From assembly GCA_038062675.1 (NCBI GenBank), contig JBBTWP010000004.1:6751-70750 (forward strand): a stretch of DNA of 64,000 nucleotides, written 5' to 3'. Origin of the DNA: Patescibacteria group bacterium. Its GTDB lineage: Bacteria; Patescibacteriota; Minisyncoccia; Phycocordibacterales; UBA1550. The notes below the pieces were generated by a model. It was given only the letters and a program-made list of their open reading frames with translations. It did not search any database and had not been told where the DNA came from. Both the position numbers and the translations under genes were made by a program. Numbering within the stretch: position 1 is the first letter of the stretch; the number at the start of each line of letters is the position of its first letter. Below are positions 31,129 through 54,735 of the stretch, in pieces.

Positions 31129-31267
31129 ACGGGTTTCGTAATCTGGCATTTCAAAATGGAAGGACCGAGTGATAGTTATCCACAGGGAACTTTTCTTTTT
31201 CAAGTCCCCTTTGCTATAATAAAAGAGCATTATTAAAAATTTATAAATTATGATTTCATCAATAAAC

Positions 31268-31942
31268 ATGGCAGAGAAGCGCAAAGACGGTTTTACTCTT
31301 CTCGAACTTTTAATCGTTATTTCGATTATCGCGATTTTGTCAGTAGCACTTGTGCTGGTCTTGGATCCCGCAGAAACTTTAAAGAAGTCACGTGACTCAC
31401 AGCGTCTTTCGGATTTAAGTACCATGAAAACAGCAATCGCGCTCTATCTCACGAGTACGACAACTCCGTATTTGGGAGCTGCAACAGCAGGGGCTTTGAA
31501 TAATACTAATTGCAAAGCAACGCCATCTGCCGCAACCGCTAAGGTTATGTACTCGCTCGTTTCAACCAGTGCTATTACCGATACAACACTTGACGCAGCT
31601 TCGGCCTCGGCAGCCGTTCAAGTTGCAACACCATCGTTAACAAATGGTGCAGGATGGATTCCTGTTATGTTTGACAATTTAACTGGTGGATCTCCAATCT
31701 CCAACATGCCTCTCGATCCCGTTAACACCGTGACCGCACTTGGGGCTGTCGCAAGCACTGATCTTGTATACCGATATGCATGTTCAGTAACTCCGTTGGC
31801 ATTTGAGCTTGGAGCACAACTTGAAAGTATTGCGTATACGTCAACTGATAATAAGAAGTCAACTGATGGTGGCAATAATGACAACTACTACGAAGTTGGT
31901 ACAAATCTGAGAATTCTTGATGGCGCAACGAACCAATACTAA
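31268..31942 (+). CDS. Type IV (major) pilin with a class III signal peptide
   Basis: KRKDG|FTLLELLIVISIIAIL prepilin cleavage/methylation motif with Glu at +5. C-terminal DGGNNDNYYE. Confidence 0.8.
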   Translation: MAEKRKDGFTLLELLIVISIIAILSVALVLVLDPAETLKKSRDSQRLSDLSTMKTAIALYLTSTTTPYLGAATAGALNNTNCKATPSAATAKVMYSLVSTSAITDTTLDAASASAAVQVATPSLTNGAGWIPVMFDNLTGGSPISNMPLDPVNTVTALGAVASTDLVYRYACSVTPLAFELGAQLESIAYTSTDNKKSTDGGNNDNYYEVGTNLRILDGATNQY

Positions 31943-31967
31943 ATCCTTATTAATTAATTCACTATTT

Positions 31968-32717
31968 ATGATTTCACTTATCACCGCAAATGAAGAAAAG
32001 CGCAAGAATGGATTTACCCTCCTTGAGCTCTTGATTGTTATTTCAATCATCGCCATTTTATCCATCGCCCTTGTGTTCTTGCTCAACCCTGCGGAAACAC
32101 TTAAGAAAGCTCGTGATGCACAGCGCATCTCAGACTTGAAGACTATTAAGACTGCCCTCGGCGTTATGCTTACAGCAAGCTCAACGCCAAGTTTGGATAG
32201 TTTCACCGCACAAGCAACAGCAGTATGTCTCACTGCAACAACAGCAGCAGGAGCGACTACATTGTCTACGGCTCCGAAAATTAGATATAGTGCCAATACT
32301 GCGCCTACTCTGACTTCTGCCACCCCTGGAGCTGATGCTGCAAGTACTGCAACAGCTTTTATTTCCGCTGCTTCTGGCTCAACGGCAGGAAAAGTTGATG
32401 CTACGGGCTGGATCCCAGTAAATTTGAAAGCGTTGACAGGAGGTACACCAATTTCAGCTTTTCCTATCGACCCTGTTAATACTGTCAGTTCTACTGCTAC
32501 TGTCACAGATCTTGTTTATCGCTACGCATGTCAAAACGGAACGACAGCGTCAGTTGGTTCAGGGAAGCCAGCATATATTTTTGAGATTGATGCTGTACTT
32601 GAAAGTAACGCGTATACTCAGGATGATAACAAGATGTCAAAAGATGGCGGAGACAATGACTCTTACTATGAGTCAGGGAATAGTTTGAATCTCTTGCCTG
32701 CTGCAGGTGCATTCTAG
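31968..32717 (+). CDS. Type IV pilin paralogue (longer ORF from 31917)
   Basis: KRKNG|FTLLELLIVISIIAIL. C-terminal DGGDNDSYYE, conserved with the upstream paralogue. Confidence 0.8.
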   Translation: MISLITANEEKRKNGFTLLELLIVISIIAILSIALVFLLNPAETLKKARDAQRISDLKTIKTALGVMLTASSTPSLDSFTAQATAVCLTATTAAGATTLSTAPKIRYSANTAPTLTSATPGADAASTATAFISAASGSTAGKVDATGWIPVNLKALTGGTPISAFPIDPVNTVSSTATVTDLVYRYACQNGTTASVGSGKPAYIFEIDAVLESNAYTQDDNKMSKDGGDNDSYYESGNSLNLLPAAGAF

Positions 32718-33623: not shown

Positions 33624-35333
33624 ATGCATATTGGACAAGAAAAGCTAAAAGAAATATTGCTTGAATCCGGACTCGTGAGCGATGAGGATTTTGAATATGC
33701 TACTGCAGAGGCTCGGCGCAGCGGACAGTCGCTTTCTAATGTCTTGGTTGGAGAAGGCAAAATTTCTGAAGATTATTTTACCGAACTCCTTGCTCCCTAT
33801 TATGGTGTTCAGGTTGTGAATCTCAAAAAAGAAACTATAGACCATGAGATTTTGGAGCTTATTCCTGAAATATACGCGAAGTCAAAGAATATTGTATTGT
33901 TTTTTTATGATAAAGAGAAAGGTATTGCAAAACTTGCCATGCTCGACCCCTTTGACTACGATACTATTGAGTATGTGCGGGCGAAGCTTGATGCGTGGGT
34001 CGAACCTTATCTCTCGACAGTCGCAAGTGTTCGTTATGGGCTCAAGCAATACAGCACAAAAATCGGTGTTGGCTTTGAACAAATCATTTCTGAAAATGTT
34101 GAACAGTCGCTTTCTGTTGCTGAAGAAAAAGATCTTTCAAAAACAGCTGCGTCGGTGCCTATTGTTACCATCCTTGATAATGTTATCGAGCATGCAGTTA
34201 CTTTAAATGCATCCGATATTCATTTTGAGCCCCTTGAGCATGAACTTTTGGTGCGTTTTCGTGTCGATGGCATCATGCAGGAGGTGGTGAGTCTCCCGAA
34301 AGCAATTGCTCCTGTTTTGGTCGCGCGCGTAAAAATCCTCGGAAGTCTTCAGATTGACGAACACCGCACCCCTCAGGATGGACGTTTTCGTTTTGATATG
34401 GACGATGGATCAAATATTGATTTACGCGTAAATATCATGCCGATTTTCCACGGGGAGAAAGTGGAAATGCGTCTCTTGAAGAGCTCTGCGCGACCACTGA
34501 CGCTCAAAGACCTTGGTTTTTCGGATGCAAATACCGCAGTCCTTGTAAATGAAGTCAAAAAACCCCACGGTATGATTTTAGTGACGGGGCCAACAGGACA
34601 TGGAAAAACTACAACACTGTATGCGGTGTTGCATATTCTCAATAAACCATCCGTGAACATTACAACCATTGAGGATCCTATTGAGTATGAGTTTCCGCGC
34701 GTAAATCAAACACAAGTAAACCAGAAAGCGGGGATTACGTTTGCAAATGGACTTCGCGCGCTTTTGCGTCAAAATCCCGACATCATTATGGTGGGTGAAA
34801 TCCGTGATAATGAGACGGTTGAAATTGCAATTCATGCCGCGCTTACGGGGCACCTTGTGCTGTCATCACTTCACACCAATGATGCCCCCTCTGCTATCCC
34901 ACGCCTTTTGGATATGGGTGCGCCGGCGTTCCTGTTGTCTTCAACTATCAACATGGTTATCGCTCAGCGTCTTGTGCGACGTATTTGTGCGTCGTGTACC
35001 GAGTCATATCCTGTAAGCCCAGAAATGGCGCGCCTTCTCAAGGCGCAAATCGAGCTGGCGGGGACCACAAATAGTAATGTTCCGGCGAGCTTGTTTCGTG
35101 GTAAGGGGTGCAAGGTATGCGGGAATTCCGGATATCAGGGGCAGATTGGTATTTTCGAGCTTTTGCGGGTTACTGAATCAATTCGTGCATTGATTTTGGA
35201 CGAAGCATCCATTCCGGAAGTGCGAAAGAAAGCAATTGAAGAGGGGATGATCACGATGTTTGAAGACGGGCTCGACAAGGTTGAGCGGGGAGTTACGACT
35301 GTGGAGGAGGTGCTCAGGGTAGTAAAAGAATAG
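33624..35333 (+). CDS. pilB: Type IV pilus assembly ATPase PilB (GspE family)
   Basis: N-terminal GSPII_E_N-like domain. Walker A GPTGHGKTT, Asp box, His box and tetracysteine CASC...CKVCGNSGY. Confidence 0.9.
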   Translation: MHIGQEKLKEILLESGLVSDEDFEYATAEARRSGQSLSNVLVGEGKISEDYFTELLAPYYGVQVVNLKKETIDHEILELIPEIYAKSKNIVLFFYDKEKGIAKLAMLDPFDYDTIEYVRAKLDAWVEPYLSTVASVRYGLKQYSTKIGVGFEQIISENVEQSLSVAEEKDLSKTAASVPIVTILDNVIEHAVTLNASDIHFEPLEHELLVRFRVDGIMQEVVSLPKAIAPVLVARVKILGSLQIDEHRTPQDGRFRFDMDDGSNIDLRVNIMPIFHGEKVEMRLLKSSARPLTLKDLGFSDANTAVLVNEVKKPHGMILVTGPTGHGKTTTLYAVLHILNKPSVNITTIEDPIEYEFPRVNQTQVNQKAGITFANGLRALLRQNPDIIMVGEIRDNETVEIAIHAALTGHLVLSSLHTNDAPSAIPRLLDMGAPAFLLSSTINMVIAQRLVRRICASCTESYPVSPEMARLLKAQIELAGTTNSNVPASLFRGKGCKVCGNSGYQGQIGIFELLRVTESIRALILDEASIPEVRKKAIEEGMITMFEDGLDKVERGVTTVEEVLRVVKE

Positions 35334-35546: not shown

Positions 35547-36770
35547 ATGGCAATATTTACTTATGAAGCATATGATGGTTCCGGCGCTGTTCTTCGGGGG
35601 GAGTACGAGGGCTCTTCTCAAGACGAGGTGTCGCAGTATCTTTTCAAGAGAAGTCTTACGCCCATTTCTATCACCATGCTTTCTGGTAAGCACGGTGGCA
35701 TGCAGAAGTTTCTATCTTCTTCCCCGTTTGAGAAACTTGATGCTGTTGATGTAATGTTCTTGGTACGAAACCTCGCCACGACCGTTAAGGCTGGGCTTTC
35801 ATTGATGGAGGCACTCGATATTCTTATTGCCGATGCAGAGAAAAACATTTTAAAGAAAGTGCTCAGGGAGGTGCAGGCCATGGTCAAAAATGGGCAGCAG
35901 CTTTCTGCAGGGTTTGAAGCGTATGCTAGTTCATTCCCTCCTGTTTTTATAGGAATGCTGAAAGCCGGAGAAGGCTCTGGTCAACTCGACAAAACACTTG
36001 CGGAGCTCGGTCGTTATTTGGGTAAAGAATATGCTCTACGGAGCAAAATAAAATCTGCACTGATGTATCCGGTTATTCTACTTGTTGCATCTACGGGAGT
36101 GGTGACGCTTCTTCTTATGTTTGTGTTGCCGCGGCTTACCAAGGCGTTTTTAGCGAGTGGCGTTGAGCTCCCCCTTCTTACTAAATTCTTTCTTGCTTTA
36201 TCCAATGCACTTACGTGGAGTTATGCGCTCGATGGTGTAGTGTTTGTGGTGGCGTTGTGGTTCTTTTTGTATTTTCGTACAACACAACTTGGGAAAAGAT
36301 TTTTCTTTTTTACTATGTCGCATGCACCCGTGGCAAGGGATTTGGTAAAAAAGGTCGCGCTCGTACGTTTCTCTCGCACGCTCTCAAATCTTATTGGTAG
36401 TGGACTTTCGGTTGTGGAAGCACTCGACCTATCGTCGCAATCGATTGGGAATCGGACATATACACTTGCGCTCAATCAGGTAATTATGGAAGTCAAGACC
36501 GGTAGCCCTATTTCCGGCGCACTTGAAAAATTTCCAAAACTTTTCCCGCGCATGCTCGTGAGTTTGGTGGTGGTGGGGGAACGTACGGGAACACTTGGAC
36601 AGATTCTTTCCACTTTTGCCGACTTTTATGAAGAGGAAGTTGACGGCAAGCTTAAAGACCTGACCGCTGCTCTGGAGCCGATACTCTTGCTCCTTATGGG
36701 AGTTTTGGTGGGGTCGATTGCCGTTTCTATTATTCTCCCTATCTATCAACTCGTGGGTAATTTTGTCTAA
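35547..36770 (+). CDS. pilC: Type IV pilus platform protein PilC (GspF family)
   Basis: Two GspF repeats and three TM helices. C-terminal LLMGVLVGSIAVSIILPIYQL. Confidence 0.9.
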   Translation: MAIFTYEAYDGSGAVLRGEYEGSSQDEVSQYLFKRSLTPISITMLSGKHGGMQKFLSSSPFEKLDAVDVMFLVRNLATTVKAGLSLMEALDILIADAEKNILKKVLREVQAMVKNGQQLSAGFEAYASSFPPVFIGMLKAGEGSGQLDKTLAELGRYLGKEYALRSKIKSALMYPVILLVASTGVVTLLLMFVLPRLTKAFLASGVELPLLTKFFLALSNALTWSYALDGVVFVVALWFFLYFRTTQLGKRFFFFTMSHAPVARDLVKKVALVRFSRTLSNLIGSGLSVVEALDLSSQSIGNRTYTLALNQVIMEVKTGSPISGALEKFPKLFPRMLVSLVVVGERTGTLGQILSTFADFYEEEVDGKLKDLTAALEPILLLLMGVLVGSIAVSIILPIYQLVGNFV

Positions 36771-36777
36771 ACTTAAT

Positions 36778-37245
36778 ATGCACATACATACAACATCATC
36801 AGGATTTTCAATGTTTGAACTTTTGATTGTCTTGAGTATTGTTGCTGTTTTGGGAGGCGGCGGAGTTGGATTTTATCAAAATTTTTCAAAAGATGTTGAG
36901 CTCAAGACTACGATGCGAGTGATAAATGCCGACTTGCGCACTGCACGAGCAAAGTCTATGGCGCGACAAGACGACCTAAAGTGGGGGGTGCATTTTGTGA
37001 ATGATGGCGCAAATCCACATTATTACGAACTTTTCTCAACTCCTACCGATTATGCGAATGCAAGTATGTCCGTGAGCGCAACCACCACTCTTTCTAAAGG
37101 TCTTACATTTTCTGATCCGAGCTCGGGAACAAAAGACATTATTTTTTACAAAGTCGCCGGCACTACGACAGCGTCCACCGTGGGTGTGACCTCAAGCGCC
37201 GGCACACAGACGCTCACTATTTCGGCGTTGGGGACAATTTATTGA
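36778..37245 (+). CDS. Prepilin-type N-terminal domain protein (pilin or pseudopilin)
   Basis: SG|FSMFELLIVLSIVAVL class III signal. The longer ORF from 36718 overlaps pilC. Confidence 0.7.
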   Translation: MHIHTTSSGFSMFELLIVLSIVAVLGGGGVGFYQNFSKDVELKTTMRVINADLRTARAKSMARQDDLKWGVHFVNDGANPHYYELFSTPTDYANASMSVSATTTLSKGLTFSDPSSGTKDIIFYKVAGTTTASTVGVTSSAGTQTLTISALGTIY

Positions 37246-37246
37246 T

Positions 37247-37768
37247 ATGTATAAAAAAGTTTCCAATTACGCCTTTATTGATAGCCAAAATCTCAATCTT
37301 GCAATTCAGGATCAGGGATGGAAGCTTGACTTTACCCGTTTTCGAGTATACCTCAAAGAAAAATATGGTGTGACAAAAGCCTTTCTGTTTATAGGGCACA
37401 TCGAAGGCAATAATCATTTGTATATTTCTCTACAGTCAGCTGGGTTTCTTTGTGTTTTTAAACCGACACTCGAGTACAAGGATGGTACAACCAAAGGCAA
37501 CTGCGATGCGGAATTGGTTCTTCATGCGATGATAGAGTATCCTAACTACGACAAAGCGATAATCGTTACCGGAGATGGGGATTTTTATTGTTTAGCCCAG
37601 CACTTGCTTGAAAAAGATAAATTGCAGGCAATTCTTATTCCCAATAAGTTGAAGTTCTCAGGACTTTTAAAGTTTAAGATATTTCGCCCTTATTTGCGAT
37701 TAATGAACGATTTAAAAGAGCTATTAAGGTATAAAAAGAAAAGGCCCTATGAGGACAAAACCTCATAG
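37247..37768 (+). CDS. NYN (LabA-like, PIN-fold) nuclease-domain protein
   Basis: YAFIDSQNL, GNCDAELVLHAM and IIVTGDGDF acidic motifs of NYN domains. The start lies 1 nt after the pilin stop. Confidence 0.65.
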   Translation: MYKKVSNYAFIDSQNLNLAIQDQGWKLDFTRFRVYLKEKYGVTKAFLFIGHIEGNNHLYISLQSAGFLCVFKPTLEYKDGTTKGNCDAELVLHAMIEYPNYDKAIIVTGDGDFYCLAQHLLEKDKLQAILIPNKLKFSGLLKFKIFRPYLRLMNDLKELLRYKKKRPYEDKTS

Positions 37769-37872
37769 GGGGGACTCTTCCGTTGGTGATAGACATAGTA
37801 TACACCTAACAAAAAATGTGTCAACGGGGTATAATGAAAAGAGGATATTTTGAAAAAACCATAATGTTTAAT

Positions 37873-38550
37873 ATGCAACATCAAAAATTTAACACGAAAC
37901 ATCTTCTCCGCTCACGTGGCTCACTCCTGCTCGAACTCCTTCTTTCGATTTCTGTGCTCGCAATCATTCTTTCTTTGAGTGCTCAGACGATGCTTGTGAG
38001 TTTGCAGAGTGAAAAAGTTTCGGGCGAGCGGGATGTGGCTGTTGCGCTTGCCAATGAGACACTGGAGGCAGTGCGTGCGGTTGCGGACGAAAAGTGGGTG
38101 AATATTTATTCGCTTACCGGCAAGGGGTCAACTCATTATAAAACTGTGCAGTCTGGGAATGCATGGACATTGGCAACAGGGGACGAAACAATTGCGCTTA
38201 ACAACGCCTCATATACTCGCTATGTGGTAATTGAGAATGTGAATCGGTGTCTCGATGTCGAAGCGGGTGGGGGGCGTAACCTTGCCAGCACTACCGTCGG
38301 TTGCACTCCCTCTACCAACTACCTCGATGACCCTTCCACCCAAAAAGCGACCGTGACGGTGTCGTGGACAGGAGGCAACCCTATCGTCATTAGTGAGTAT
38401 TTTTTCAGGTGGCGAAACAAAGTGTGCAATCAGACTGGATGGACGGGAAATGGAGGTTCGGGGAACAGTGTGGTTTCCTGCACTGATACAACCTATGATA
38501 TTGCCGACTCTGCAATCTCTACTTCAACGGGGACACTTAGGCTTGAATAG
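37873..38550 (+). CDS. Pseudopilin-like protein with a prepilin-type N-terminal helix
   Basis: RGSLLLELLLSISVLAIIL, followed by a Thr/Ser/Gly-rich beta region. Confidence 0.5.
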   Translation: MQHQKFNTKHLLRSRGSLLLELLLSISVLAIILSLSAQTMLVSLQSEKVSGERDVAVALANETLEAVRAVADEKWVNIYSLTGKGSTHYKTVQSGNAWTLATGDETIALNNASYTRYVVIENVNRCLDVEAGGGRNLASTTVGCTPSTNYLDDPSTQKATVTVSWTGGNPIVISEYFFRWRNKVCNQTGWTGNGGSGNSVVSCTDTTYDIADSAISTSTGTLRLE

Positions 38551-38632: not shown

Positions 38633-41600
38633 ATGTTAATGAATATAAAAAGGCAAATGATTTTGAAAAAAATTTTTGGATACGTCAAAAAATTTTCTAA
38701 ATTTAGTGTCGTTTTTTTGTTAATTGTAACTTTTGGGTTTGCGGATGTTGCAACAGTGGTTTTTGATGGGCTTGGTGCGCCAAAGTTGGCGCAGTGGACA
38801 GCAATCAAGAAAGCAGAAGCAGTGGCGCAGGGAGATGGAGAGATTATATACGGCGATAGTAATGCTAGTCTTGTAAGGAGAAGAGATTGGACAGGAACTT
38901 TCAGCGTGGAGTATGACACCCTTGCTGCTGGAACAGTAATTCGCCATGTTGTCATTAAAGCTTCACCGGTTAGGAATGAAATGATTGCCGGTATACAAAC
39001 CACTGCAGGCACGCTTTACATACAACGCTTTAATGGCACAAGTTGGTCCAATGAGTGGAATGTGACGGTTGGTGATGGAAATCTCCCTCGTTTTGACATC
39101 AGCTTCGAGGGCACTTCTGGAGATATGATGGTGGTGTATACAGGCAACACAGCCACTGACGGACAGGAACTGGTGTATAGAATTTGGAATGGCTCTACTT
39201 GGACTGTTGCGGCCAATTTGGGCTCAACGAGAACGACTGGCATTGTTGACGGTATAGCTATGGAGCGTCGCGGAGGCACTGATGAAATTGCGCTTGTGTA
39301 CGGAGACAGAAACTTCGACCTTTCGGCAAATTTTTGGGATGGTGCAACAAATGCATGGAAGGGGGAGCCGTCGGCAGCATTGGAAACAAGCTTGGCAAAA
39401 GTGGGAACCGCGACGACTCTAACTAACTTTTCTTTTGACCTTGAATTTGAATCCACATCCGGCGAGCTTTTGATTGTGTGGGGTGCTGATGCAGTGTTGG
39501 ACGGCAAGTATGTCACTCGTGGTGCTGGGCCGGCAGGCGCGTGGGGTTCTGTTACCACCAATACGGCTTTTCTTGAAGAGCCGACTGATGTGGAGCTTTC
39601 TGCCGACCCAAACTCAAATTACATTGCGTATGCGAATAGCTCGGATAACGGCGCAGACTCCGATGCCATAGTCTGGACGGGCACTGCGTGGGGGACGGCG
39701 TTTCAAGTTGACGCTTCAAACGACACGGTGGGTGCCGGAACAAGTAACAATGCGGTAAACTGGGTGACGAGTGGTGCCCAGACGCGTGCTGTGCTCACCT
39801 ACGACGATGCCAATGCAGCGGGTGTTGACTGGGCAGTATATAACAAAAATACCAATGCATGGGCTCTCCAAACCGACTGTACTACCGCTTGCTCGTCGCA
39901 ACCACTGAGTGGTGACGATAAGGTTCATCGTTTGCGACGCAATCCGTTTAATCAAGCTGAACTTCTTTTTTTGGGAGTAGATAACACTTCCGATTTATGG
40001 GTGAAAAAATTGGTCTTCGACGGAACTAATTTCACATGGTCAAATGCCGATGGCGGAGTAGCTCTTGAAACTGTGATATCGAGCGTTACCGGTTTTGCGG
40101 CAGATTTTGCATACAATAGGTACATTCCTCCTACGGTTACCACCACCCTTGCGACCGGCTCCGACCCTGCCGCCGCTACTATTGCCCCCGAAGCTGTAAC
40201 GACCGATGTAAATCAGTTTACTCTGCAGACAAGCAGTGGAACGGAAACAGTAACGTCGGTTACAGTGAATCTTTCAACCGGCAGCGGGGTGGATTCGCTT
40301 TATATTACTGATAATACCAATACGGTTTTGGGTTCAATAATCGCGCCGCTGTCGGGGGGCTCTAATGTGGTTGCCGTTTCGGGGATGTCAGCAGGTACAT
40401 CCGCCACAACATTCAAGGTTCGTGTTACTCCCCTGCCTCACAGTTTAATGCCAGCAGTGACGGGTGCAGCATACGCCATCACCGCACCCGTCACTGCATG
40501 GGCGGGGAATGCCACGACACACGCGGGGAGTGATACGAATACCAATGCACTTACAATTGACAATGCATCCCCTTCGGGAGCTACAAGCGCAAGTGGTACA
40601 GCAGGTGACGCAAAGGTAACACTCAACTGGACGACATCGGCGTCCACCGATTTTAGTCGCTCGGTGATGCTCCGGTGGACAGCATCAACGCCGAGTGCAG
40701 CGGTGCCCGAAGAGGGGACGGATTATGCGAATGGGAATACTGTTGGTAGTGGTTCAAAAATTGACTACAATACAGGAGCCAGTCCCATAGGTGTCGCCTT
40801 CGACTCCTCCACCAACTCTGTTTGGGTGGTGAATAGTGGTGGCAATACTGTCACCAAGCTCACCGCTGCCACTGGCGCTTTGGTGGGAACATATACAGTG
40901 GGAAATGCTCCTCGAGATGTCGCCTTCGACTCCTCCACCAACTCTGTTTGGGTGACGAATACTGGTGGTGGTTCCGGCAATACTGTCACCAAGCTCACCG
41001 CCGCCACCGGCGCCTTGGTGGGAACATATACAGTGGGAACTGGTCCTTTTGGTGTCGCGTTCGACTCCTCCACCAACTCTGTTTGGGTGGCGAATAATGG
41101 TAGTGGTTCCGGCAATACTGTCACCAAGCTCACCGCCGCCACCGGCGCCTTGGTGGGAACATATACAGTGGGAACTGGTCCTTTTGGTGTCGCGTTCGAC
41201 TCCTCCACCAACTCTGTTTGGGTGGCGAATAATGGTAGTGGTTCCGGCAATACTGTCACCAAGCTCACCGCCGCCACCGGCGCCTTGGTGGGAACATATA
41301 CAGTGGGAACTGGTCCTTTTGGTGTCGCGTTCGACTCCTCCACCAACTCTGTTTGGGTGGCGAATAATGGTAGTGGTTCCGGCAATACTGTCACCAAGCT
41401 CACCGCCGCCACCGGCGCCTTGGTGGGAACATATACGGTGGGAACTGGTCCTCGAGATATCGCCTTCGACTCCTCCACCAACTCTGTTTGGGTGGTAAAT
41501 AATGGTGGAAATACTGTCACTAAGCTCACCGCCGCCACCGGCGCTTTGGTGGGAACATATACGGTGGGAACCGGTCCCATAGATGTCGCCTTCGACTCCA

Positions 41601-43132
41601 CCACCAACTCTGTTTGGGTGGTGAATAATGGTGACGATACCGTCACCAAGCTCACCGCCGCCACCGGCGCTTTGGTGGGAACATATGCAGTGGGGGTCAG
41701 TCCCATTAGTGTTGCTTTCGACTCCTCCACCAACTCTGTTTGGGTGGTGAATAATGTTGGCGAAACCGTCAGCAAAGTGGATGCAGTGGGCGCCACGGTT
41801 GTCTGTGTCCGCACTGATGCTGCATCGACCGCCATTACCGACATCAACGGTGCCGGTGGCACCAGCTGTCTCACTACCGCCCTTACGAACGGCACCGCCT
41901 ACAGTTACAAAGTTTTCCAAAAAGACGCAAATGGCAACTATGACGCCGGTGTCGTGCCGACGGGTTCGCCGTTTACACCAGCTGCCATCACAACCACGCT
42001 TGCCACTGGTTCCGACCCTGCCGCGGCAACAATCGCCCCCGGAGCCGTCGCAACTGATGTTGATTTATTTACTTTGCAAACAAGCAGTGGAACGGAAACA
42101 GTAACTTCGGTGACGGTGAACCTTTCGACAAATAGTGGTATCGGTTTGCTCGCCATTACCGACAATGCAAACACTGTTTTGGGGTCGACTGCATCGCCGG
42201 TTACGGGTTCTAACGTTATTACGGTCTCAGGTATGTCAGCAGGTACCACGCTCACCACGTTTAAAGTCCGCGCCACACCTCTCAGTCATGCGCTGATGCC
42301 CGCACCTGCAGGCGGTGCGTACGCCATCACTGCGCCAGTGACAAGCTGGGCGGGAGCAAATACGCACGCAGGGAGTGATACAAACTCCAATGCGCTAACG
42401 ATTGACAACGGGTCGCCTGCTGGCACAACAGGCGCTGGCGCGGTAGCTGGGAACGCACAGGTCACGGTGAGCTGGACGAATCCTGCTGATGCTGATTTTC
42501 AAAAGGTAATTATTTATTGTAAGACCGCAAGCATCACTGAAACGCCAACAGAAGGATCTGATCCAACGGTGGACGTCGCCGCCTGCGACGCAACAGCACG
42601 TGTCAAGTATAATGGTTCAATAAGCCCGCAGATTATCACCGGCCTCACTAACGGTACGTTGTATTATTTTAGAATTTATGCGCGTGACACCAACGGTAAC
42701 TTTACCGCTATTGCATCTACACAGCAGGTTTCTGCTACGCCCGCGGCTGGAGGCGGACTCCCCGTTTCAGGGACACTCACCTCTGGGGTTTTTGACACAG
42801 GAACTGCTGATGGGGCGACGTTTAATTCTATTTTATGGAATGGAACCACTATCGGGACAGGAGCAGTACGCTTCCAGTTTTCGGCATCGAATAGTAGTAC
42901 AGGTCCATGGGACTATAACGGAGCAGGTTCAGGGACATGCGGGGCATTGGACTGGTTTAACCCCGGAGCTCTTGATACCGCTGTGGAGCTAAAGGGTTCT
43001 GGATGCGCAGCGCTTTGGAACAACAAACGATACTATCGTTACAAGGTACAGATTTGTTCCGCCGCAAATTGTACTGATGTTGGTGCTACTAGTCCTATTA
43101 TAAATAAAATTGTTGTCAGTTGGTCACCGTAA
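38633..43132 (+). CDS. Giant secreted/surface repeat protein (1499 aa): N-terminal domain, module X, about nine YVTN beta-propeller repeats, module X', C-terminal domain
   Basis: N-terminal signal/TM. 45-aa repeats SSTNSVWVANNGSGSGNTVTKLTAATGALVGTYTVGTGPFGVAFD (YVTN-type). Duplicated FN3-like about 170-aa modules (TLATGSDPAAATIAP...NWTT). Confidence 0.85.
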   Translation: MLMNIKRQMILKKIFGYVKKFSKFSVVFLLIVTFGFADVATVVFDGLGAPKLAQWTAIKKAEAVAQGDGEIIYGDSNASLVRRRDWTGTFSVEYDTLAAGTVIRHVVIKASPVRNEMIAGIQTTAGTLYIQRFNGTSWSNEWNVTVGDGNLPRFDISFEGTSGDMMVVYTGNTATDGQELVYRIWNGSTWTVAANLGSTRTTGIVDGIAMERRGGTDEIALVYGDRNFDLSANFWDGATNAWKGEPSAALETSLAKVGTATTLTNFSFDLEFESTSGELLIVWGADAVLDGKYVTRGAGPAGAWGSVTTNTAFLEEPTDVELSADPNSNYIAYANSSDNGADSDAIVWTGTAWGTAFQVDASNDTVGAGTSNNAVNWVTSGAQTRAVLTYDDANAAGVDWAVYNKNTNAWALQTDCTTACSSQPLSGDDKVHRLRRNPFNQAELLFLGVDNTSDLWVKKLVFDGTNFTWSNADGGVALETVISSVTGFAADFAYNRYIPPTVTTTLATGSDPAAATIAPEAVTTDVNQFTLQTSSGTETVTSVTVNLSTGSGVDSLYITDNTNTVLGSIIAPLSGGSNVVAVSGMSAGTSATTFKVRVTPLPHSLMPAVTGAAYAITAPVTAWAGNATTHAGSDTNTNALTIDNASPSGATSASGTAGDAKVTLNWTTSASTDFSRSVMLRWTASTPSAAVPEEGTDYANGNTVGSGSKIDYNTGASPIGVAFDSSTNSVWVVNSGGNTVTKLTAATGALVGTYTVGNAPRDVAFDSSTNSVWVTNTGGGSGNTVTKLTAATGALVGTYTVGTGPFGVAFDSSTNSVWVANNGSGSGNTVTKLTAATGALVGTYTVGTGPFGVAFDSSTNSVWVANNGSGSGNTVTKLTAATGALVGTYTVGTGPFGVAFDSSTNSVWVANNGSGSGNTVTKLTAATGALVGTYTVGTGPRDIAFDSSTNSVWVVNNGGNTVTKLTAATGALVGTYTVGTGPIDVAFDSTTNSVWVVNNGDDTVTKLTAATGALVGTYAVGVSPISVAFDSSTNSVWVVNNVGETVSKVDAVGATVVCVRTDAASTAITDINGAGGTSCLTTALTNGTAYSYKVFQKDANGNYDAGVVPTGSPFTPAAITTTLATGSDPAAATIAPGAVATDVDLFTLQTSSGTETVTSVTVNLSTNSGIGLLAITDNANTVLGSTASPVTGSNVITVSGMSAGTTLTTFKVRATPLSHALMPAPAGGAYAITAPVTSWAGANTHAGSDTNSNALTIDNGSPAGTTGAGAVAGNAQVTVSWTNPADADFQKVIIYCKTASITETPTEGSDPTVDVAACDATARVKYNGSISPQIITGLTNGTLYYFRIYARDTNGNFTAIASTQQVSATPAAGGGLPVSGTLTSGVFDTGTADGATFNSILWNGTTIGTGAVRFQFSASNSSTGPWDYNGAGSGTCGALDWFNPGALDTAVELKGSGCAALWNNKRYYRYKVQICSAANCTDVGATSPIINKIVVSWSP
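40780..41760 (+). repeat. Intragenic tandem array of 135-bp units. Three-plus copies are perfectly identical at 40970-41455 and the flanking copies are diverged.
   Basis: GGTTCCGGCAATACTG recurs at 40970, 41105, 41240 and 41375 with an exact 135-nt period. Confidence 0.9.
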
Positions 43133-43167: not shown

Positions 43168-43671
43168 ATGAAAAAAATACTCAATAATTATGCATATATA
43201 GATAGTCAAAACCTGAATCTTGGTATTCAGAAACTTGAATGGAAATTAGATTATCGGAAATTTAGGATATATCTTGCTGAAAAATACAGCGTTAAGAAGG
43301 CATATATGTTTATCGGTTTTGTTGCATTAAATCAATCGCTGTATGACAATCTCCAAGAAGCGGGATTTATTTTGAGATTCAAACCGACAGTTCCGGATGC
43401 TGACGGTAAAATTAAAGGCAACATAGATGCAGACATGGTTTTGCTTGCAACGCTTGAATTAAATGCTTATGACAAAGCGGTTATTGTTTCCAGTGATGGC
43501 GATTTTTATTCGCTCGTGCAGTATTTGCACGAGAATGGTAAATTAAGAGTTGTATTGAGCCCAGACATTAAAAATTGTTCAACGTTGCTTAAGCAGACAG
43601 CAAGAGAAAAGATATGGTTTATGAATGAATTGAGAAATAAACTTGAGTATAAAAAGAAAAGCACCGCTTAA
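43168..43671 (+). CDS. NYN (LabA-like, PIN-fold) nuclease-domain protein, paralogue of the 37247 gene
   Basis: YAYIDSQNL, GNIDADMVLLAT and VIVSSDGDF. About 55% identical to the first copy by eye. Confidence 0.65.
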   Translation: MKKILNNYAYIDSQNLNLGIQKLEWKLDYRKFRIYLAEKYSVKKAYMFIGFVALNQSLYDNLQEAGFILRFKPTVPDADGKIKGNIDADMVLLATLELNAYDKAVIVSSDGDFYSLVQYLHENGKLRVVLSPDIKNCSTLLKQTAREKIWFMNELRNKLEYKKKSTA

Positions 43672-43762
43672 GGATGAAACCTTAAACAGTACTTTCCCTA
43701 GAAATACATTTTAATTATATCAAATGGCTAAATTATGTCAAGCATCAAACAAGCACCGTAAT

Positions 43763-44287
43763 ATGAACATATTTTCTTACAAAAAAATACATACCGCACG
43801 TGGAGTCACGCTCCTTGAGCTTCTTATTTATGTGGCGGTGTTCTCGGGGATTGCGGTTGTGGTTGCTGATACCTTTCTCTCGATAGCAAAAGCACGCGGG
43901 CAGTCGGAGGCGCGCGCAGAGGTGAATTCCGCGATACGGTTTGCGACGGAGCTTGTTCGACAAGACTTAAAGGCGGCGACAGCGCTCGCCACACCCGCGT
44001 TGGGGACACCATCCGCGACTTTGGTTGCGACTGTAGCTGGGGCGACCGTCACCTATGACGTAGTTTCGGGACAGCTTCGTAGAAATGCTGTGGCGGTAAC
44101 CGGAAGTTTGATTTTTGTTGATACTCCTTCGTTTACACGGCTCGAGAACTATAACTCGGTGGTGGGGGTGACAGGGTTTGGTGCGACCACTACGGCAGTT
44201 TCGGTCTTGATGACCTTTCGATATAATGCTTCAAGCACCGACTGGACATACGCGGATACACTTCGCACGACCGTGACTTTGCGGTAG
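43763..44287 (+). CDS. Pseudopilin with a prepilin-type N-terminus
   Basis: ARG|VTLLELLIYVAVFSGIAVV class III-like signal with Glu at +5. Confidence 0.6.
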   Translation: MNIFSYKKIHTARGVTLLELLIYVAVFSGIAVVVADTFLSIAKARGQSEARAEVNSAIRFATELVRQDLKAATALATPALGTPSATLVATVAGATVTYDVVSGQLRRNAVAVTGSLIFVDTPSFTRLENYNSVVGVTGFGATTTAVSVLMTFRYNASSTDWTYADTLRTTVTLR

Positions 44288-44290: not shown

Positions 44291-44773
44291 ATGGTTATGA
44301 TGAGATTTAATATAAAAAAAAGAAAATCGCAGGGCGGGGCAACACTTCCCACTGTTTTGGTCTTGACGATTTTAACGCTCACGGTTGCAGTGGGAATCAC
44401 CACTATTTCATTCACCGAATCTTTTATTTCAGAAAGTGGGGTGCAGTCATCCACCGCGCTCTTTTATGCCGAGGCAGGGACGCGGGATGCATTGACGAAA
44501 ATTGCACGCAACAAGGGGTATACCTGCGCTTCTGCCGATTATTGTTACAGTATTGAACTTGTTTCCGGTGGGTGTACAGGGTCTGTATTAGGATGCGCAC
44601 GGGTTTCGGTAAGTGCCGGAGCGGGGACTACTGCTGCGCCCAAAGTCGTTACCTCAAAGGGGATTGTAAAAACAAGCACACGAACACTTAGTGTAGATGT
44701 AATTCTCGATAGTGGGGCAGGGACAAATATTGGTCAGATTACTTCCGCCACAACGACGGAGTTGACCAACTAG
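44291..44773 (+). CDS. PilX-like minor pilin / pilus-associated protein
   Basis: N-terminal hydrophobic helix GGATLPTVLVLTILTLTVAVGI. Small Cys-containing globular domain. Position at the operon end. Confidence 0.4.
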   Translation: MVMMRFNIKKRKSQGGATLPTVLVLTILTLTVAVGITTISFTESFISESGVQSSTALFYAEAGTRDALTKIARNKGYTCASADYCYSIELVSGGCTGSVLGCARVSVSAGAGTTAAPKVVTSKGIVKTSTRTLSVDVILDSGAGTNIGQITSATTTELTN

Positions 44774-44865: not shown

Positions 44866-47412
44866 CTAGTTTTTTTGGGGTGAGTTGGCTGCTTCGATGC
44901 GATAATAGAGCAATTTTGCTATTTCTGTGGTGACAAAATAGGTGGCGACAATGCCCAGCACTAACGCAAGAGACTGCGGGGAAGGGGCAACAAAACCAAA
45001 TACAGATTGACCGAATGAGGTAAAAGGAATGATGATGGTTGCAGCAAACGCGACGACTGAGAGGGTGATGAGGGGTTTTGACGGTGCGCGCGCCTTGAGG
45101 AAAAATACACGAGAGCGTATTGAGTAGAGGAAAAGAATTTCAGTGAGGATGCTGACCATGAACCAATGAGTTTGAAGCATTTGTGCACTGATGTGATAGA
45201 ACGATGCGAATGTGATGAAGTCAAAGACCGTTGATACAATGCCGAGAACGGTTCCAAACGCAAGAATTTTCTTGATGTTGTATTCTTGCGGTTTTTGAAT
45301 GTCACTGTCTTCAACGGTATCGGTGGCGATTGCAATAGCGGGGAAGTCGGATAGGAGATTTACCAGCAGAATTTGAAGGGGAAGCATGGGGAGAAATGGA
45401 ATAAAGAGCGAAGAGATTGCCACCGCGTAAAAATTGCCGAAATTCGATGAAAGGGAACTGCGAATATATTTGATAGTGTTGGCGAATGTTACGCGGCCTT
45501 CGCGGATGCCTTCTATGATCACGAGGAGATTTTTTTTGAGAAGGACGATATCAGCAGCTTCTCGTGCAATGTCGGATGCAGACTGCACTGCAATGGCAAC
45601 GTTGGCGATTTTGAGCGCTGGAGCATCGTTAATTCCTTCACCCAAAAATCCGACATGGTATTTTTTCTGTAATAGTTCAATAATTTTATATTTGTCCTCC
45701 GGTGAAACGCGCGCAAAAGTACTCAATCGTTCGAGGGCTTCACTGCGCGCTTCATCATGAAGAGCAAAGAAATCGCGTGCAGTCAAAACATCTTGCGGAG
45801 TCTGTGCAAGACCAACGGCGTATGCGACCTGCCCTGCAACTTCAGGACTGTCTCCGGTAAGAATTTTGATCTTCACTCCCAATTTCACGGCTTCCTTGAT
45901 GGCTTCGCGTGCGCTTTCTTTTATGGGGTCAATGAAAGAAATAGAACCAATGAAGGTTAGAGATGTTTCGTCACTTACCGCGTCGTATTCATTGGAAGCG
46001 AGGGCTTTTGAAGCGACAGCAAGGGTTCGTCTGCCTGCAGCGCCTTCTTGTGCAGTCCATGCGAGAACGCTTGCGCGCTCTTCTGGTGTCATGTTTGACG
46101 CGTTTACGATTGCCTCTGGTGCTCCGCGTACCATGAGGGTGGTTTCGCCACTCTGTTTCAAGAGAACGCTGTTTTGCTTGCGTACGGGGTCAAAGGGGAT
46201 GTCACGCAATCGTTCGTATGATTTAATTTGATTTTGGTCGTCGGAAGAAAGTGCCTGCCAGAGCGCTTCATCGAATGGGTCAATGCCTTGGTTGCGATCC
46301 TTCATCAAGAGATATGAGCTCGCGAGATTGCCTGCGGTGAGTATTTGTCGGGAGCTTTGTTTTGACTCCGGACTATGGGTGAGATGTACGGTGAGCTTGT
46401 TTTCGGTCAGCGTGCCCGTCTTGTCGGTACAGAGAACATCAATTCCTCCAATATCTTCAATAGAAGAAAGACGCTTTACGATAACATGTTTTTTTGCTAA
46501 ACGTCGCGCACCGCGAGAGAGCGAAAACGTCATAACGACAGGGAGAGCTTCAGGAACCACTGATACTGCGAGTGCGATTGAAAAAATGGCAAGAGAGGCA
46601 ATGTTTGCGTCCCATCCTTTGAGTGCGATGTTGGTCGCGAAAATGAAAATGAGCGTTCCGACGACAATATAAAGAATAAATTTACTAAACCGTGCGAGCT
46701 CACTTTCGAATTTGCTTGCGTGGCTTGTTGTGCCGGTTAGGCGTGCGATGTTGCCAATGATGGTCTGGGATCCTGTGGCAAATACAATACCCACTGCACT
46801 TCCAGAAAGGACTGTTGTTCCCGAGAAAGCAATATTATTTGCAGTGTGAAGCTCCGAGGAGGGTTTTTCCATGGGCTTACTGCTCTTCATTACTGAGACG
46901 GATTCTCCTGTGAGCGGCTCCTCGTTGATGAGGAGGTTTATGTCCTCAATGATGCGCATGTCGGCGGCAATACTGTCGCCAGCTTCGGCGATGACAATAT
47001 CTCCGGGAACGAGCTCTTTCGTCGTGATGGTATACACAGAACCATCACGACGAACTTTGGTGCGCGCCGTGATGTAATGCCTGAGGAGTTCTACTGTTTT
47101 TTCGGAACGATATTCTTGGTAAAAGCCCAGAGTAGCGTTGATGAAGAGGAATAATACGATTGCCCATCCCTCAATCATTTGACCCAACATGAATGAAAGT
47201 CCTGCCGCTGCAAAAAGCAGGTAGATGAAAGAAGATTTGAATTGTCGGAGGAAAATTTTCCATGGGCGAACCGCGCTTTTTTCAATACGGTTCAATCCGT
47301 GTATTTTCCTAAGCTCTTCGACTTGTGTAATCGAGAGCCCTTGTGCTGGATCCACGGAAAATATTTTTGCTGTGGCGTCAGTGTCACGTGTTGTGTACTC
47401 GGTAAATCCCAT
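44866..47412 (-). CDS. Cation-transporting P-type ATPase (P2/P3-like, Ca2+/Mg2+ type)
   Basis: TGES, CTDKTGTLTENK, PEAL (a PEGL variant) and GDGINDAPALK. Ten TM helices. Confidence 0.85.
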   Translation of the reverse strand: MGFTEYTTRDTDATAKIFSVDPAQGLSITQVEELRKIHGLNRIEKSAVRPWKIFLRQFKSSFIYLLFAAAGLSFMLGQMIEGWAIVLFLFINATLGFYQEYRSEKTVELLRHYITARTKVRRDGSVYTITTKELVPGDIVIAEAGDSIAADMRIIEDINLLINEEPLTGESVSVMKSSKPMEKPSSELHTANNIAFSGTTVLSGSAVGIVFATGSQTIIGNIARLTGTTSHASKFESELARFSKFILYIVVGTLIFIFATNIALKGWDANIASLAIFSIALAVSVVPEALPVVMTFSLSRGARRLAKKHVIVKRLSSIEDIGGIDVLCTDKTGTLTENKLTVHLTHSPESKQSSRQILTAGNLASSYLLMKDRNQGIDPFDEALWQALSSDDQNQIKSYERLRDIPFDPVRKQNSVLLKQSGETTLMVRGAPEAIVNASNMTPEERASVLAWTAQEGAAGRRTLAVASKALASNEYDAVSDETSLTFIGSISFIDPIKESAREAIKEAVKLGVKIKILTGDSPEVAGQVAYAVGLAQTPQDVLTARDFFALHDEARSEALERLSTFARVSPEDKYKIIELLQKKYHVGFLGEGINDAPALKIANVAIAVQSASDIAREAADIVLLKKNLLVIIEGIREGRVTFANTIKYIRSSLSSNFGNFYAVAISSLFIPFLPMLPLQILLVNLLSDFPAIAIATDTVEDSDIQKPQEYNIKKILAFGTVLGIVSTVFDFITFASFYHISAQMLQTHWFMVSILTEILFLYSIRSRVFFLKARAPSKPLITLSVVAFAATIIIPFTSFGQSVFGFVAPSPQSLALVLGIVATYFVTTEIAKLLYYRIEAANSPQKN

Positions 47413-47426
47413 AATGTGTTTTGTGA

Positions 47427-49346
47427 TTAAACTGAAGCAAGTTTTTGGTTATCTGGTCTTCCTGTGTTGTTATTATAACGTTTTGCTTTGTATTGGTACA
47501 GACGTAATGCGTTTGCGACGGGAATGAAATCCGTGAGAAAGTTGTATGCTGCTGCATCTTTTGGATCAAATACTCCTGCGAACACAAAATAGAGTCCAAG
47601 AATATTGATGACAGCCCATATTGCAAAATTTTGATAAGCGACATTGGTCACGCGCTGTGCAATGTCGCGAAGTTCAAGTAGTTTAGCAAAATCATCGTTC
47701 ATAAGAATGATATCGGCTGAGTTGATGGCAGCGTCGGAGCCTATGCCACCCATTGCTATTCCAACGTCTGCGCGCGTAATGCAGGCAGCGTCGTTGACAC
47801 CGTCGCCGAGCATCGCCACCACTTCTTTTTTGTTGAGGTATGTTTCGAGTATGGAGACTTTGTGCTCTGGAAGAAGATTTGCGTGGTACGCATTGAGCTT
47901 TCCGTGTTCTGCGATAGTCTTCGCGACATGTTCGTTGTCCCCCGTAAGCATGACGATTTTTTTGACACCGCTTTTTCTAAGTGCGGCGATGGTGCGGTCA
48001 ACATCAGGGCGAAGTTTGTCTGAGAGTTCAAATAGTCCGACAATATTTTTTTCAACTGCTATCAATGTCACACTCCTGCTTTTAGAAAGTGCTTCTGTTA
48101 TCGCACTCGCAATTTCAGGGGTTATGGGAATTCCTTGCTCTTCTAAAAATTTCGGCTTTCCCAGTGTTATTTTTTGGTTTTGTTGATTAACTCCAGCAAT
48201 TCCTTGTCCTTCGGTTTCTTGAAATACTCCAGAAGCCTTGCATGACAACCCCTGTTCTGTTGCGTGTCGCGCGATTGCTTTTGATGCGGGATGGGTCGAT
48301 CTGCTACAGATAACGCCAGACAACTCAAGCACTTGAGAAAGGGGGATATTTCCAAAGGATCGAGCATCCTGCACGCTGAGCTGTCCCATTGTTAGTGTTC
48401 CTGTTTTATCGACAATAAGTGTAGAAATTTTTGAGGCACGCTCAAGGAAGTCAGCTCCTTTAATGAGAATGCCACGCTTTGCGGCGGTTCCCATAGCAAC
48501 AATATAAGCAAGGGGAATCGCGATCGCAATGTCATCCGCACACACAACGAGAACAACTGCAAGAACAAGCTTAACATCTCCGGTAACAAGGTAGAGAACC
48601 AGCGACACGACGAGCATAATGCCAATGTACCAGCTTGCAAAACGCTCAGCGAGAGTCTTCATCCTTGTCTTTGCTCCTTGAGAACTTTCAACCAAACTTA
48701 TCATGCGTTCAAATATTGTCTGTGTGCCAATTTTTTCTGTAGAAATAATAATATTTCCCGACACGACAAGAGTGGAGGCAAGAACCATATCATTTTTGGC
48801 GAGGAGGACAGGAACAGATTCTCCGGTGAGTGACGATTGGTCTACTGTAGCGTTCCCTTCTGTTACTCTCCCGTCCACCGGTATTTGTTCCCCGAGGTTT
48901 ACGAGTACTAAATCCCCAAGAGAAAGATCTGCAATCGGAACGGTAATGGTTTGGTTGTTGCGGAGAACATGCGCTACGGAAGGCTTGAGTTTTCTGAGAC
49001 TTTCGAGAGAATTTTGTACGCGACGCTCTGTAATGATTCCAAAAATGCGTGCCAATGAAAGCATGGCGTTGATGAAAAGCACCGACTCCCATTCTTGTGC
49101 GAGAAGTGAGAATACAAGAGCGATGGAAGCAAGGAGGTCGACATTGATTTTCTTATTACGAAGACTTCGAGCGGTGCTCTTAAGTACAGGATAAAGCCCA
49201 ACAAGGGAGATGCCACCAAGAATGAATATGCGGAGCTGTTCAGGGATAGCTCCAAGTAAATATGCAAGAAGTGCTGCAGTAAACAGACAAAGAAGCCCGA
49301 CTTCAAGAGAGAGGAGTTTTTTTGATTCACTCGGTGTGTAGTTCAT
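47427..49346 (-). CDS. P1B-like P-type ATPase lacking an N-terminal metal-binding domain, with CAD in place of the CPC transduction motif
   Basis: TGES, DKTGTLT, STHPASKAI (heavy-metal HP motif) and GDGVNDAA. VCADDIAIAIPLA at the TM6 position. Confidence 0.75.
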   Translation of the reverse strand: MNYTPSESKKLLSLEVGLLCLFTAALLAYLLGAIPEQLRIFILGGISLVGLYPVLKSTARSLRNKKINVDLLASIALVFSLLAQEWESVLFINAMLSLARIFGIITERRVQNSLESLRKLKPSVAHVLRNNQTITVPIADLSLGDLVLVNLGEQIPVDGRVTEGNATVDQSSLTGESVPVLLAKNDMVLASTLVVSGNIIISTEKIGTQTIFERMISLVESSQGAKTRMKTLAERFASWYIGIMLVVSLVLYLVTGDVKLVLAVVLVVCADDIAIAIPLAYIVAMGTAAKRGILIKGADFLERASKISTLIVDKTGTLTMGQLSVQDARSFGNIPLSQVLELSGVICSRSTHPASKAIARHATEQGLSCKASGVFQETEGQGIAGVNQQNQKITLGKPKFLEEQGIPITPEIASAITEALSKSRSVTLIAVEKNIVGLFELSDKLRPDVDRTIAALRKSGVKKIVMLTGDNEHVAKTIAEHGKLNAYHANLLPEHKVSILETYLNKKEVVAMLGDGVNDAACITRADVGIAMGGIGSDAAINSADIILMNDDFAKLLELRDIAQRVTNVAYQNFAIWAVINILGLYFVFAGVFDPKDAAAYNFLTDFIPVANALRLYQYKAKRYNNNTGRPDNQKLASV

Positions 49347-49370
49347 GTGTGGGAGTGTGGTAGTAGAAAA

Positions 49371-50885: not shown

Positions 50886-50949
50886 GATGTAATTTGTTAT
50901 ACTGAAAGATTCCTTATTAGTATAACAAATTCACTGGATTCAGGTAATA

Positions 50950-54728: not shown

Positions 54729-54735
54729 TTATACA

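Follow-up and report, generated by a model that had tools for sequence, protein, structure and literature searches.

A giant gene on the plus strand (38633..43132) lies in a 64,000-nucleotide stretch of DNA from a groundwater Patescibacterium (GenBank assembly GCA_038062675.1, contig JBBTWP010000004.1, positions 6,751 to 70,750 of the forward strand), which was analyzed as a whole and is here called the window. The 1,499-residue surface protein that the gene encodes (MEK7538815.1 at NCBI, "Patescibacteria group bacterium") is real. We consider it probable that this protein is a modular, exported protein of the adhesin type, most likely carried on the tip complex of the type IV pilus as a functional analogue of PilC/PilY1, and that one of its two β-propellers, of the YVTN type, is young. 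The repeat array of the YVTN propeller is, robustly, much more homogeneous than those of its relatives, and we therefore conclude that this propeller was built or homogenized very recently, through tandem duplication of a 135-bp blade unit or through its gene conversion. To our knowledge, all cultivated Patescibacteria are episymbionts, and how they recognize their hosts is largely obscure. Type IV pili are their best-supported host-binding organelle (PMC11623550).

A mosaic protein encoded in a type IV pilus operon

A preliminary description of this DNA, made from the letters alone, had placed a long 4.5-kb gene for a large exported protein in a pilus locus. The open reading frame (ORF) and its translation bear out the gene, and PilB, PilC, and flanking prepilin-type genes support its setting. 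From the N terminus, the protein comprises a leader, an N-terminal β-propeller, a first stalk module with an eight-blade YVTN propeller, a second stalk module, and a 131-residue C-terminal domain (CTD). The start codon is ambiguous: Met1 (38633; 1,499 aa) is the choice of NCBI, and Met9 (38657; 1,491 aa), with AAAGG 5 nucleotides (nt) to its 5′ side, is that of the ENA gene call. Read by eye, the leader (aa 1 to 58; 38633..38806) has a basic stretch, a hydrophobic core (FSVVFLLIVTFGFA), and a linker, and it looks like a Sec-type signal or anchor. A prepilin leader was sought at the N terminus (...KKFSKFSVVFLLIVTFGFADVA), where no G/F..E motif was found and G-1 and E5 were both absent; a reading of the protein as a modular pilin was dropped because the class III prepilin leader is absent. 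Sortase anchoring, which the preliminary description had raised, was also dropped. The 1,499-aa protein has no sortase signal, that is, no LPXTG with a hydrophobic segment and basic tail; the sole LPxxG-like match is LPVSG at aa 1376, within the CTD, and the protein ends in ...VVSWSP. A type II secretion substrate was set aside because an outer membrane is, as far as we know, not expected in Patescibacteria.

The pilus genes all lie on the plus strand. Upstream of the giant gene are two candidate major pilin genes recognized by their leader motif (G/FTLLELLIV; starts at 31250 and 31917, within 31250..32717) and, by protein family match, the genes for the PilB ATPase (33624-35333) and the PilC platform protein (35547-36770). 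The giant gene itself is framed by four minor pilin genes. To its 5′ side are a GspH/FimT-like gene (36718..37245; G/FSMFE; family match and leader) and a PilV-like gene (37816..38550; G/SLLLE; leader and synteny), and to its 3′ side are a GspJ/PilW-like gene (43724..44287; G/VTLLE; family match and leader) and a GspK/PilX-like gene (44291..44773; GGATLPTV..., no E5; leader and synteny). The four minor pilins are 46 to 65% identical and syntenic in two other loci, L028 and L011, the latter from Yonathbacteria and with a PilC that is 66% identical; the cargo between them differs, and the CTD is the shared cargo element. The L028 protein, P0003, has the N-terminal domain (NTD), the stalk, and the last 131 residues in common with the window protein and sits in the same frame of four small genes. 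In L011, different large proteins lie between the pilins: a 548-aa protein that shares the C-terminal 131-aa domain only and a separate 986-aa protein that carries a YVTN propeller.

We conclude that the window protein is a mosaic of a generic surface-protein head (the NTD), a duplicated stalk, a nested YVTN propeller, and a pilus-slot CTD. This mosaic origin, which seems new, is indicated by the NTD, because its closest relative is the nonpilus paralog P0002 (83% identity) and not the syntenic ortholog P0003 (54%).

The CTD is the signature of the large-protein slot

The CTD (aa 1369 to 1499; 42737..43129; terminus ...SPIINKIVVSWSP) was followed in a survey of metagenomic loci, in which contigs scanned with an alignment of three CTDs yielded 71 loci. 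In 67 of 70 loci, the domain extends to the last residue of the ORF, and its ending (..sP.V.DVvVNWsP) is conserved. Complete CTD proteins, most of them with Sec-type signal peptides, range from 148 to 2,004 aa (commonest length, ~425 aa), and their heads are extremely variable. Downstream genes were counted in the 58 loci with at least 800 nt beyond the CTD. A GspJ-like gene followed within 1.2 kb in 41 of them; most often, it touched or overlapped the stop codon. Of these 41 loci, 39 also had a GspK-like gene. Among the remaining loci, 2 had a prepilin ORF found by motif, 9 were directly followed by a GspK/PilX-type gene (G-x-x-LLP...), and 3 had one extra large gene ahead of GspJ and GspK, for a total of 55 of 58 loci with minor-pilin-type genes downstream. 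Moreover, in L047, L085-87, and L097, the CTD protein begins with an authentic prepilin leader (G/SLLLE, G/QVLAE, or G/QSLIE), and the CTD there forms a fusion with a PilV-like pilin.

Given the 55 loci with minor-pilin genes and the pilin fusions, we conclude that the CTD, and not the propellers, is the signature of the pilus operon. The CTD profile had no relative in Pfam, and a PDB search gave nothing credible; in a collection of 5.8 billion proteins it matched mostly short fragments. All CTD matches that carried names were from Patescibacteria. What seems to be new is that the large proteins in this slot of Patescibacterial minor-pilin operons have an unannotated CTD in common. If the CTD is indeed a pilus-docking module, it would provide a sequence handle for candidate pilus-tip adhesins across the whole radiation.

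Proposed docking at the pilus tip

In PilC/PilY1, the last ~10 residues complete the β-sheet of a minor pilin of the PilK/GspK family, and this strand addition both licenses assembly and keeps the adhesin on the tip (2026 study; PMC13533445). Because the conserved terminal strand of the CTD, its constant adjacency to GspK-like genes, and its occasional fusion to pilins match this pattern, we propose that the terminal strand (...IVVSWSP) would dock onto the GspJ/GspK-like minor pilins encoded just downstream. The N-terminal leader would export the protein, and the two stalk modules would hold out the lectin-like NTD and the eight-blade YVTN propeller as distal binding heads.

The likeness to PilC/PilY1 of Neisseria, Pseudomonas, Myxococcus, and Acinetobacter extends to several features: both are large nonpilin proteins with a Sec-type leader encoded among core minor pilins, both have a variable N-terminal adhesive part and a conserved C-terminal part, both end in a conserved extreme C-terminal strand, and both genes lie beside a GspK/PilX-like pilin gene. 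However, the C terminus of the window protein is the 131-aa unannotated domain, its propellers are N-terminal or internal, and docking is proposed for it by analogy. A second comparison is with PilX2 of the saccharibacterium Nanosynbacter lyticus TM7x, which is likewise encoded in a Patescibacterial type IV pilus minor-pilin locus, has a noncanonical leader, bears a β-propeller head proposed to bind host glycans, and is needed for efficient host binding (PMC11623550). The requirement for PilX2 in host binding makes an adhesin role plausible for such proteins. PilX2 differs in being pilin-like with a C-terminal seven-blade propeller of the RCC1 type, whereas the window protein has no N-terminal pilin fold and combines two other propeller types with a duplicated stalk and the CTD.

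Several observations weigh against a place on the pilus tip. The gene order is H-V-cargo-J-K and not the canonical I-J-K-Y1. The PilY1/PilC domain, which includes the propeller of that family, was absent in searches of Pfam and NCBIfam (E ≤ 0.1), and the protein therefore falls outside PilC/PilY1. If the hydrophobic segment near the N terminus is an uncleaved membrane anchor, as it could be, the protein would be held at the cell and not at the pilus. Finally, the NTD family is found mostly outside pilus operons, suggesting that the heads are generic surface-protein modules. The last two points would suit a surface adhesin or S-layer-like protein that its N-terminal hydrophobic segment anchors to the cell, with the pilus genes merely colocated. 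Such a protein would also be consistent with the nonprepilin leader, with the occurrence of NTD-family proteins near peptidoglycan (PG)-binding, dockerin-like, glycosyltransferase, and other giant proteins, and with the archaeal S-layer protein that is the top fold match of the inserted propeller. Nevertheless, we judge this alternative unlikely: the CTD is bound to the minor-pilin slot in 55 of 58 loci and fused to genuine pilins in five, its gene and the next pilin gene are usually contiguous or overlapping, and the syntenic ortholog P0003 retains the same frame. The preliminary description had suggested an adhesin, a pilus tip protein, or an S-layer-like component; the conserved minor-pilin frame and the CTD argue for the first two, and the S-layer suggestion is weaker than the pilus reading.

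The N-terminal domain models as a propeller

The NTD (aa 59 to 500; 38807..40132) is the part common to nearly all relatives and defines a wider protein family. It belongs to no Pfam family and had no sequence match in a PDB profile search; an exhaustive profile-free search recovered 958 cluster representatives at E ≤ 1e-3 and 604 at E ≤ 1e-10. The AlphaFold2 (AF2) model, built from a 25-sequence alignment, is confident and all-β, with 31 strands (predicted local distance difference test [pLDDT], 89.5; predicted TM-score, 0.90), and on the strength of this model and the Foldseek matches we assign the NTD to the propellers. The best matches were bacterial and fungal propeller lectins (PLL/PHL/BP39L and AFL/RSL), followed by sialidase and glycoside-hydrolase propellers, with 9 to 18% identity overall. 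Similarity to the lectins is one of fold only (TMq, ~0.5; TMt, ~0.65; 12 to 18% identity). These moderate scores count against the lectin assignment, and we therefore treat "lectin-like" as a lead and not a finding.

The same Foldseek list includes several sialidases together with the glycoside hydrolases BT3686 and BACCELL_00856, all with E-values much like the lectin ones, which would be compatible with a secreted or displayed carbohydrate-active enzyme (a sialidase- or glycoside-hydrolase-like propeller) in place of an adhesin. We regard this as very improbable: the enzyme matches had 9 to 14% identity and a root mean square deviation (rmsd) of 9 to 13 Å, compared to ~6 Å for the PLL-type lectins, there was no enzyme family match in Pfam or NCBIfam, and no catalytic motif was identified.

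The contexts of NTD proteins vary. P0002, the closest homolog, is without the CTD and outside any pilin operon; its neighbors are PG-binding, dockerin-like, and glycosyltransferase genes. P0014 lies among other giant proteins, and P0009 is 3 kb from a pilin cluster. In a side set (P0046, P0047, P0024, P0029, P0030, P0038, and P0013), the NTD was present in up to 11 to 12 copies per protein in proteins of 6.7 to 7.9 thousand residues and also occurred in proteins with multiheme cytochrome Pfam domains; one member was labeled Nanoarchaeota.

The YVTN propeller appears to be inserted into a duplicated stalk

Two ~500-bp stretches (40134-40660 and 41990-42500) had been described as ~80% identical copies of an FN3-like module that bracket the repeat array. 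A gapped DNA alignment gave 69% identity, with 77 to 80% in the first ~120 nt only. Thus, a tandem duplication exists, but the duplicated unit is larger than first described: the two stretches are the 5′ parts of a ~250-aa stalk module that begins with an unannotated domain of ~135 aa and ends with an FN3-like one. Furthermore, the propeller is not bracketed by the two modules but nested in the FN3-like domain of module 1. The first domain of that module (aa 501 to 640; 40133..40552) is unannotated and has its paralog in module 2. The N-terminal half of the FN3-like domain follows (aa 641 to 706; 40553..40750), and beyond the propeller comes the C-terminal half (aa 1054 to 1122; 41792..41998), which was delimited by homolog alignments and comparison with module 2. 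Module 2 (aa 1123 to 1368; 41999..42736) has the first domain and then an uninterrupted FN3-like domain.

When residues 707 to 1053 are removed, module 1 (501 to 706 plus 1054 to 1122) is collinear with module 2 at 60% identity over 246 aa. In four homologs, the two FN3 halves are contiguous: P0006 aligned to them at 614 to 681 and 683 to 736, P0026 aligned at 409 to 480 and 481 to 556, P0010 behaved likewise, and in P0003 the junction reads ...EGVDYTNGNTIG-AATVVCVRTSDA..., whereas the window protein holds the whole propeller between ...NGNTVG and ATVVCVRTDAA.... Because these close homologs have the FN3-like domain uninterrupted at the split point, we read the YVTN array as a domain insertion in a loop of the first FN3-like domain. 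The PF00041 (fn3) match in module 2 is weak (E = 0.0018; 18.9 bits, below the cutoff of 25). A point against the split is that both FN3 halves of module 1 have a pLDDT of <50 in the AF2 model and are not resolved there; the claim is therefore one of sequence alignment.

A freshly amplified eight-blade YVTN propeller nested in an FN3-like domain of a pilus-slot protein seems to be new. Two evolutionary processes would be clearly illustrated by this one natural gene: domain insertion in an FN3 loop and propeller growth by blade duplication. Other members of the family bear different inserts in the stalk: in P0003 (L028 2480-5884), ~190 aa are inserted in the FN3-like domain, and in P0004, an inserted repeat separates the two domains of the stalk. 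It thus seems that the stalk is a general insertion platform. The GC content is 54% at window positions 40001 to 42000 (array and stalk), compared to ~42 to 48% in the rest of the window, which may stem from a composition rich in Gly, Ala, Thr, and Val or from a foreign origin of the insert.

Fold and relatives of the inserted propeller

The inserted domain (aa 707 to 1053; 40751..41791) was recognized as a YVTN-type propeller of eight blades by profiles, AF2, Foldseek, and unit alignment. Its match to PF10282 exceeded the Pfam cutoff (23.9 versus 21.7 bits), and the NCBIfam matches to TIGR03866 (E = 2e-24) and YncE (3.5e-9) were partial matches under full-length cutoffs. Its top Foldseek match was the archaeal S-layer YVTN propeller 1L0Q (E = 1e-19). 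The initial identification of YVTN-type propeller repeats is therefore upheld. In the AF2 model of residues 637 to 1125, pLDDT is 85 to 97 across 709 to 1050, and 32 strands form eight four-stranded blades in a closed ring, within the seven to nine blades originally anticipated. The alignment behind this model (A6) contains ~20 misaligned residues in 5 rows; A3, A5, and A7 were discarded because MAFFT had misplaced partial rows. In the strand list of the model, a strand at K709-N713 precedes unit 1, and unit 8 supplies three strands only. By our own reading of that list, K709-N713 is placed to complete blade 8 in the usual "velcro" closure, which would leave the two ends of the insert adjacent. 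The lowest Foldseek rmsd values (2.4 to 3.8 Å) were those of ODA16, TBLR1, tetrathionate hydrolase, and BamB, which we take to be eight-bladed propellers.

Each component considered here is of an already known kind: a PilY1-like slot, a propeller-bearing candidate Patescibacterial pilus adhesin, a YVTN surface propeller, and a recently amplified propeller. The window protein shares its blade family and its fold with YVTN surface proteins such as the Methanosarcina S-layer protein (1L0Q) and Escherichia coli YncE, and its pairing of such a propeller with FN3-like domains resembles their combination with Ig-, PKD-, or FN3-type domains. In contrast to these, its model has eight blades and not the canonical seven, the propeller is nested in an FN3-like domain, and the blades are near-identical in DNA. 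Near-identical blades imply recent amplification from one blade unit. They are also a feature of the "highly repetitive propeller structure" 2YMU, which is among the fold matches of the inserted propeller. Unlike 2YMU, however, this propeller is of the YVTN and not the WD40 type, is embedded in a pilus-operon protein, and shows an apparent seven- versus eight-blade difference between assemblies of one population.

The propeller nearest to the inserted one (60% identity across 337 aa) is in an Omnitrophota protein (L009; JAPLLX010000002.1, 2-8347) of >2,782 aa. This protein contains several YVTN propellers of the AFDSSTNSVWV subtype shared with the window protein, a hint that ultrasmall bacteria exchange this module. 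In operons of the Yonathbacteria type (L011 4309-8964 and L079 7753-12400), the 548-aa CTD protein is followed by the separate, secreted 986-aa YVTN-propeller protein, which is itself partly homogenized: YTVSKIDIFTGTKVDYSVG is repeated at least twice, and SVSKIDIFTGTKVDYSVG another two times. YVTN propellers therefore recur at the pilus locus in different arrangements.

The blade units were amplified or homogenized recently

Tandem Repeats Finder located the array at 40841-41756 (period 135, 6.9 copies, 91% matches), the only substantial tandem repeat in the window, and a 36-nt core of the unit occurs eight times in the window, always within the giant gene (0 expected in shuffles). The number of blade units is eight (aa 717 to 1064), half of 45 aa and half of 42 aa, where about nine of 45 aa had been reported. 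Self-comparison at a 135-nt shift was perfect over 469 bp (40968..41436; 3.47 units). The earlier observation of identical adjacent units at 40970-41455 thus holds for the perfect periodicity, with a different span and with one exception among the central units (units 3 to 5; 41042-41446): units 3 and 4 are the same in DNA, but unit 5 is one synonymous base apart. Two long ORFs on the opposite strand (388 and 376 aa) overlie the array; the preliminary description had taken such ORFs to be spurious.

Units 1 to 7 are 87 to 100% identical, and this near-identity extends to synonymous sites. Related arrays are less uniform, with unit-to-unit matches of 75% in L011 and 66 to 78% in the L009 giant protein of the same blade subtype. 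Because the window array is far more homogeneous than those of its relatives, amplification or gene conversion was recent. The inference of recent expansion drawn in the preliminary description therefore stands, but that of ongoing recombination is unsafe, since an assembler could yield the same identity. Differences between units fall mostly in two segments, codons 1 to 4 (xPxx) and codons 17 to 23 (the N-x-G-(GSG) loop). In most pairs among units 1 to 7 that differ, nonsynonymous changes equal or exceed synonymous ones (6:1 between units 2 and 3); pairs with unit 6, such as 1-6 and 3-6, depart from this. The nonsynonymous changes cluster in two loops, at sites too few for a test of diversifying selection.

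Copy number of the perfect units differs between assemblies

Gain or loss of one unit preserves the reading frame and would turn the eight-blade ring into a seven-blade ring. In the cluster of this protein at 90% identity, one member has 1,446 aa and is shorter by exactly 45 aa, and another, of 564 aa, begins within the array. Exact-sequence contig look-ups for the 1,499-aa and 1,491-aa forms gave no match, and the loci were reached through cluster members P0045 and P0044. The 1,446-aa form comes from contig Hain_H41_02um_R1_1583 (L001), which has 0 mismatches to the window across 12.3 kb of left flank and only 3 mismatches near the right end. Its array has two identical units compared to three in the window, and both carry GGT (Gly) where all three window units carry AGT (Ser). 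The 564-aa form comes from L002 (GCA_964358075.1) and L003 (Hain_H41_02um_R2; ERZ1292628), which are 100% identical to the window on either side and have a 100-N gap in place of gene nt 2526 to 2795, inside the perfect stretch. The diverged units 1, 2, 6, 7, and 8, which had been described as flanking the identical ones, are the same in all assemblies. Public assemblies from the same well thus disagree, and the number of identical units depends on the assembly. That a second assembly from this well has exactly one unit fewer agrees with the suggestion that the array is a plausible substrate for unit-number change.

These comparisons also count against taking the central units at face value, since their exact number and identity may be assembly products. 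We see a substantial chance, somewhat below even, that a short-read assembler guessed how often to go around the repeat loop and put a single variant into every pass, which would account for both the perfect identity and the count of three; the true array may then differ in unit number, and its units may differ slightly. A perfect repeat of 469 bp exceeds typical short-read length, contig names indicate a mere 5 to 8× coverage, and L002 and L003 break exactly at the perfect stretch despite flawless flanks, and L001 differs there by one unit despite a left flank with 0 mismatches. The AGT/GGT variant is uniform inside each assembly and different between assemblies, as this explanation predicts; the presence of AGT in one and GGT in another also means that both unit types exist in the well. 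However, the array as a whole is certainly real, given flanking units that are identical in all assemblies; both resolved versions are in frame and give viable seven- or eight-blade rings; and true population heterogeneity fits the same data equally well. Because the perfect repeat lies exactly where public assemblies break or disagree, copy numbers in proteins of this kind derived from metagenome-assembled genomes should be read with caution.

More tentatively, and with the analogy to PilC/PilY1 as our guide, we raise the possibility that the CTD is an undescribed pilus-tip docking domain found across Patescibacteria. Here, it would play the role of the PilC/PilY1 strand beneath swappable heads, lectin-like or YVTN among them, in proteins of 148 to 2,004 aa, and the seven- versus eight-blade difference would, in this population, be a standing polymorphism that tunes recognition of hosts or surfaces.

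Neighboring genes and a second repeat

Inside the minor-pilin operon, two paralogs with an NYN domain (PF01936), a predicted RNase-type domain, lie one on each side of the giant gene (37247-37768 and 43168-43671). They are absent from the syntenic operons L028 and L011. A copy that is 90% identical, followed by a PilV-like gene, begins L053 and L054, which are other Hainich H41 contigs. Directly 3′ of the pilus operon on the minus strand (44866-56016) is a metal-handling cluster with three P-type ATPases (one with an HMBD), a PG_binding_1 protein, and a multicopper oxidase, which is unusual in the reduced genome of a Patescibacterium. At window positions 3759-3836 lies a perfect direct repeat of 41 bp in 1.9 copies (CTGCGGAATCGTGTCGCGCAAGTCCGTTGGGCGCGACCGGC).

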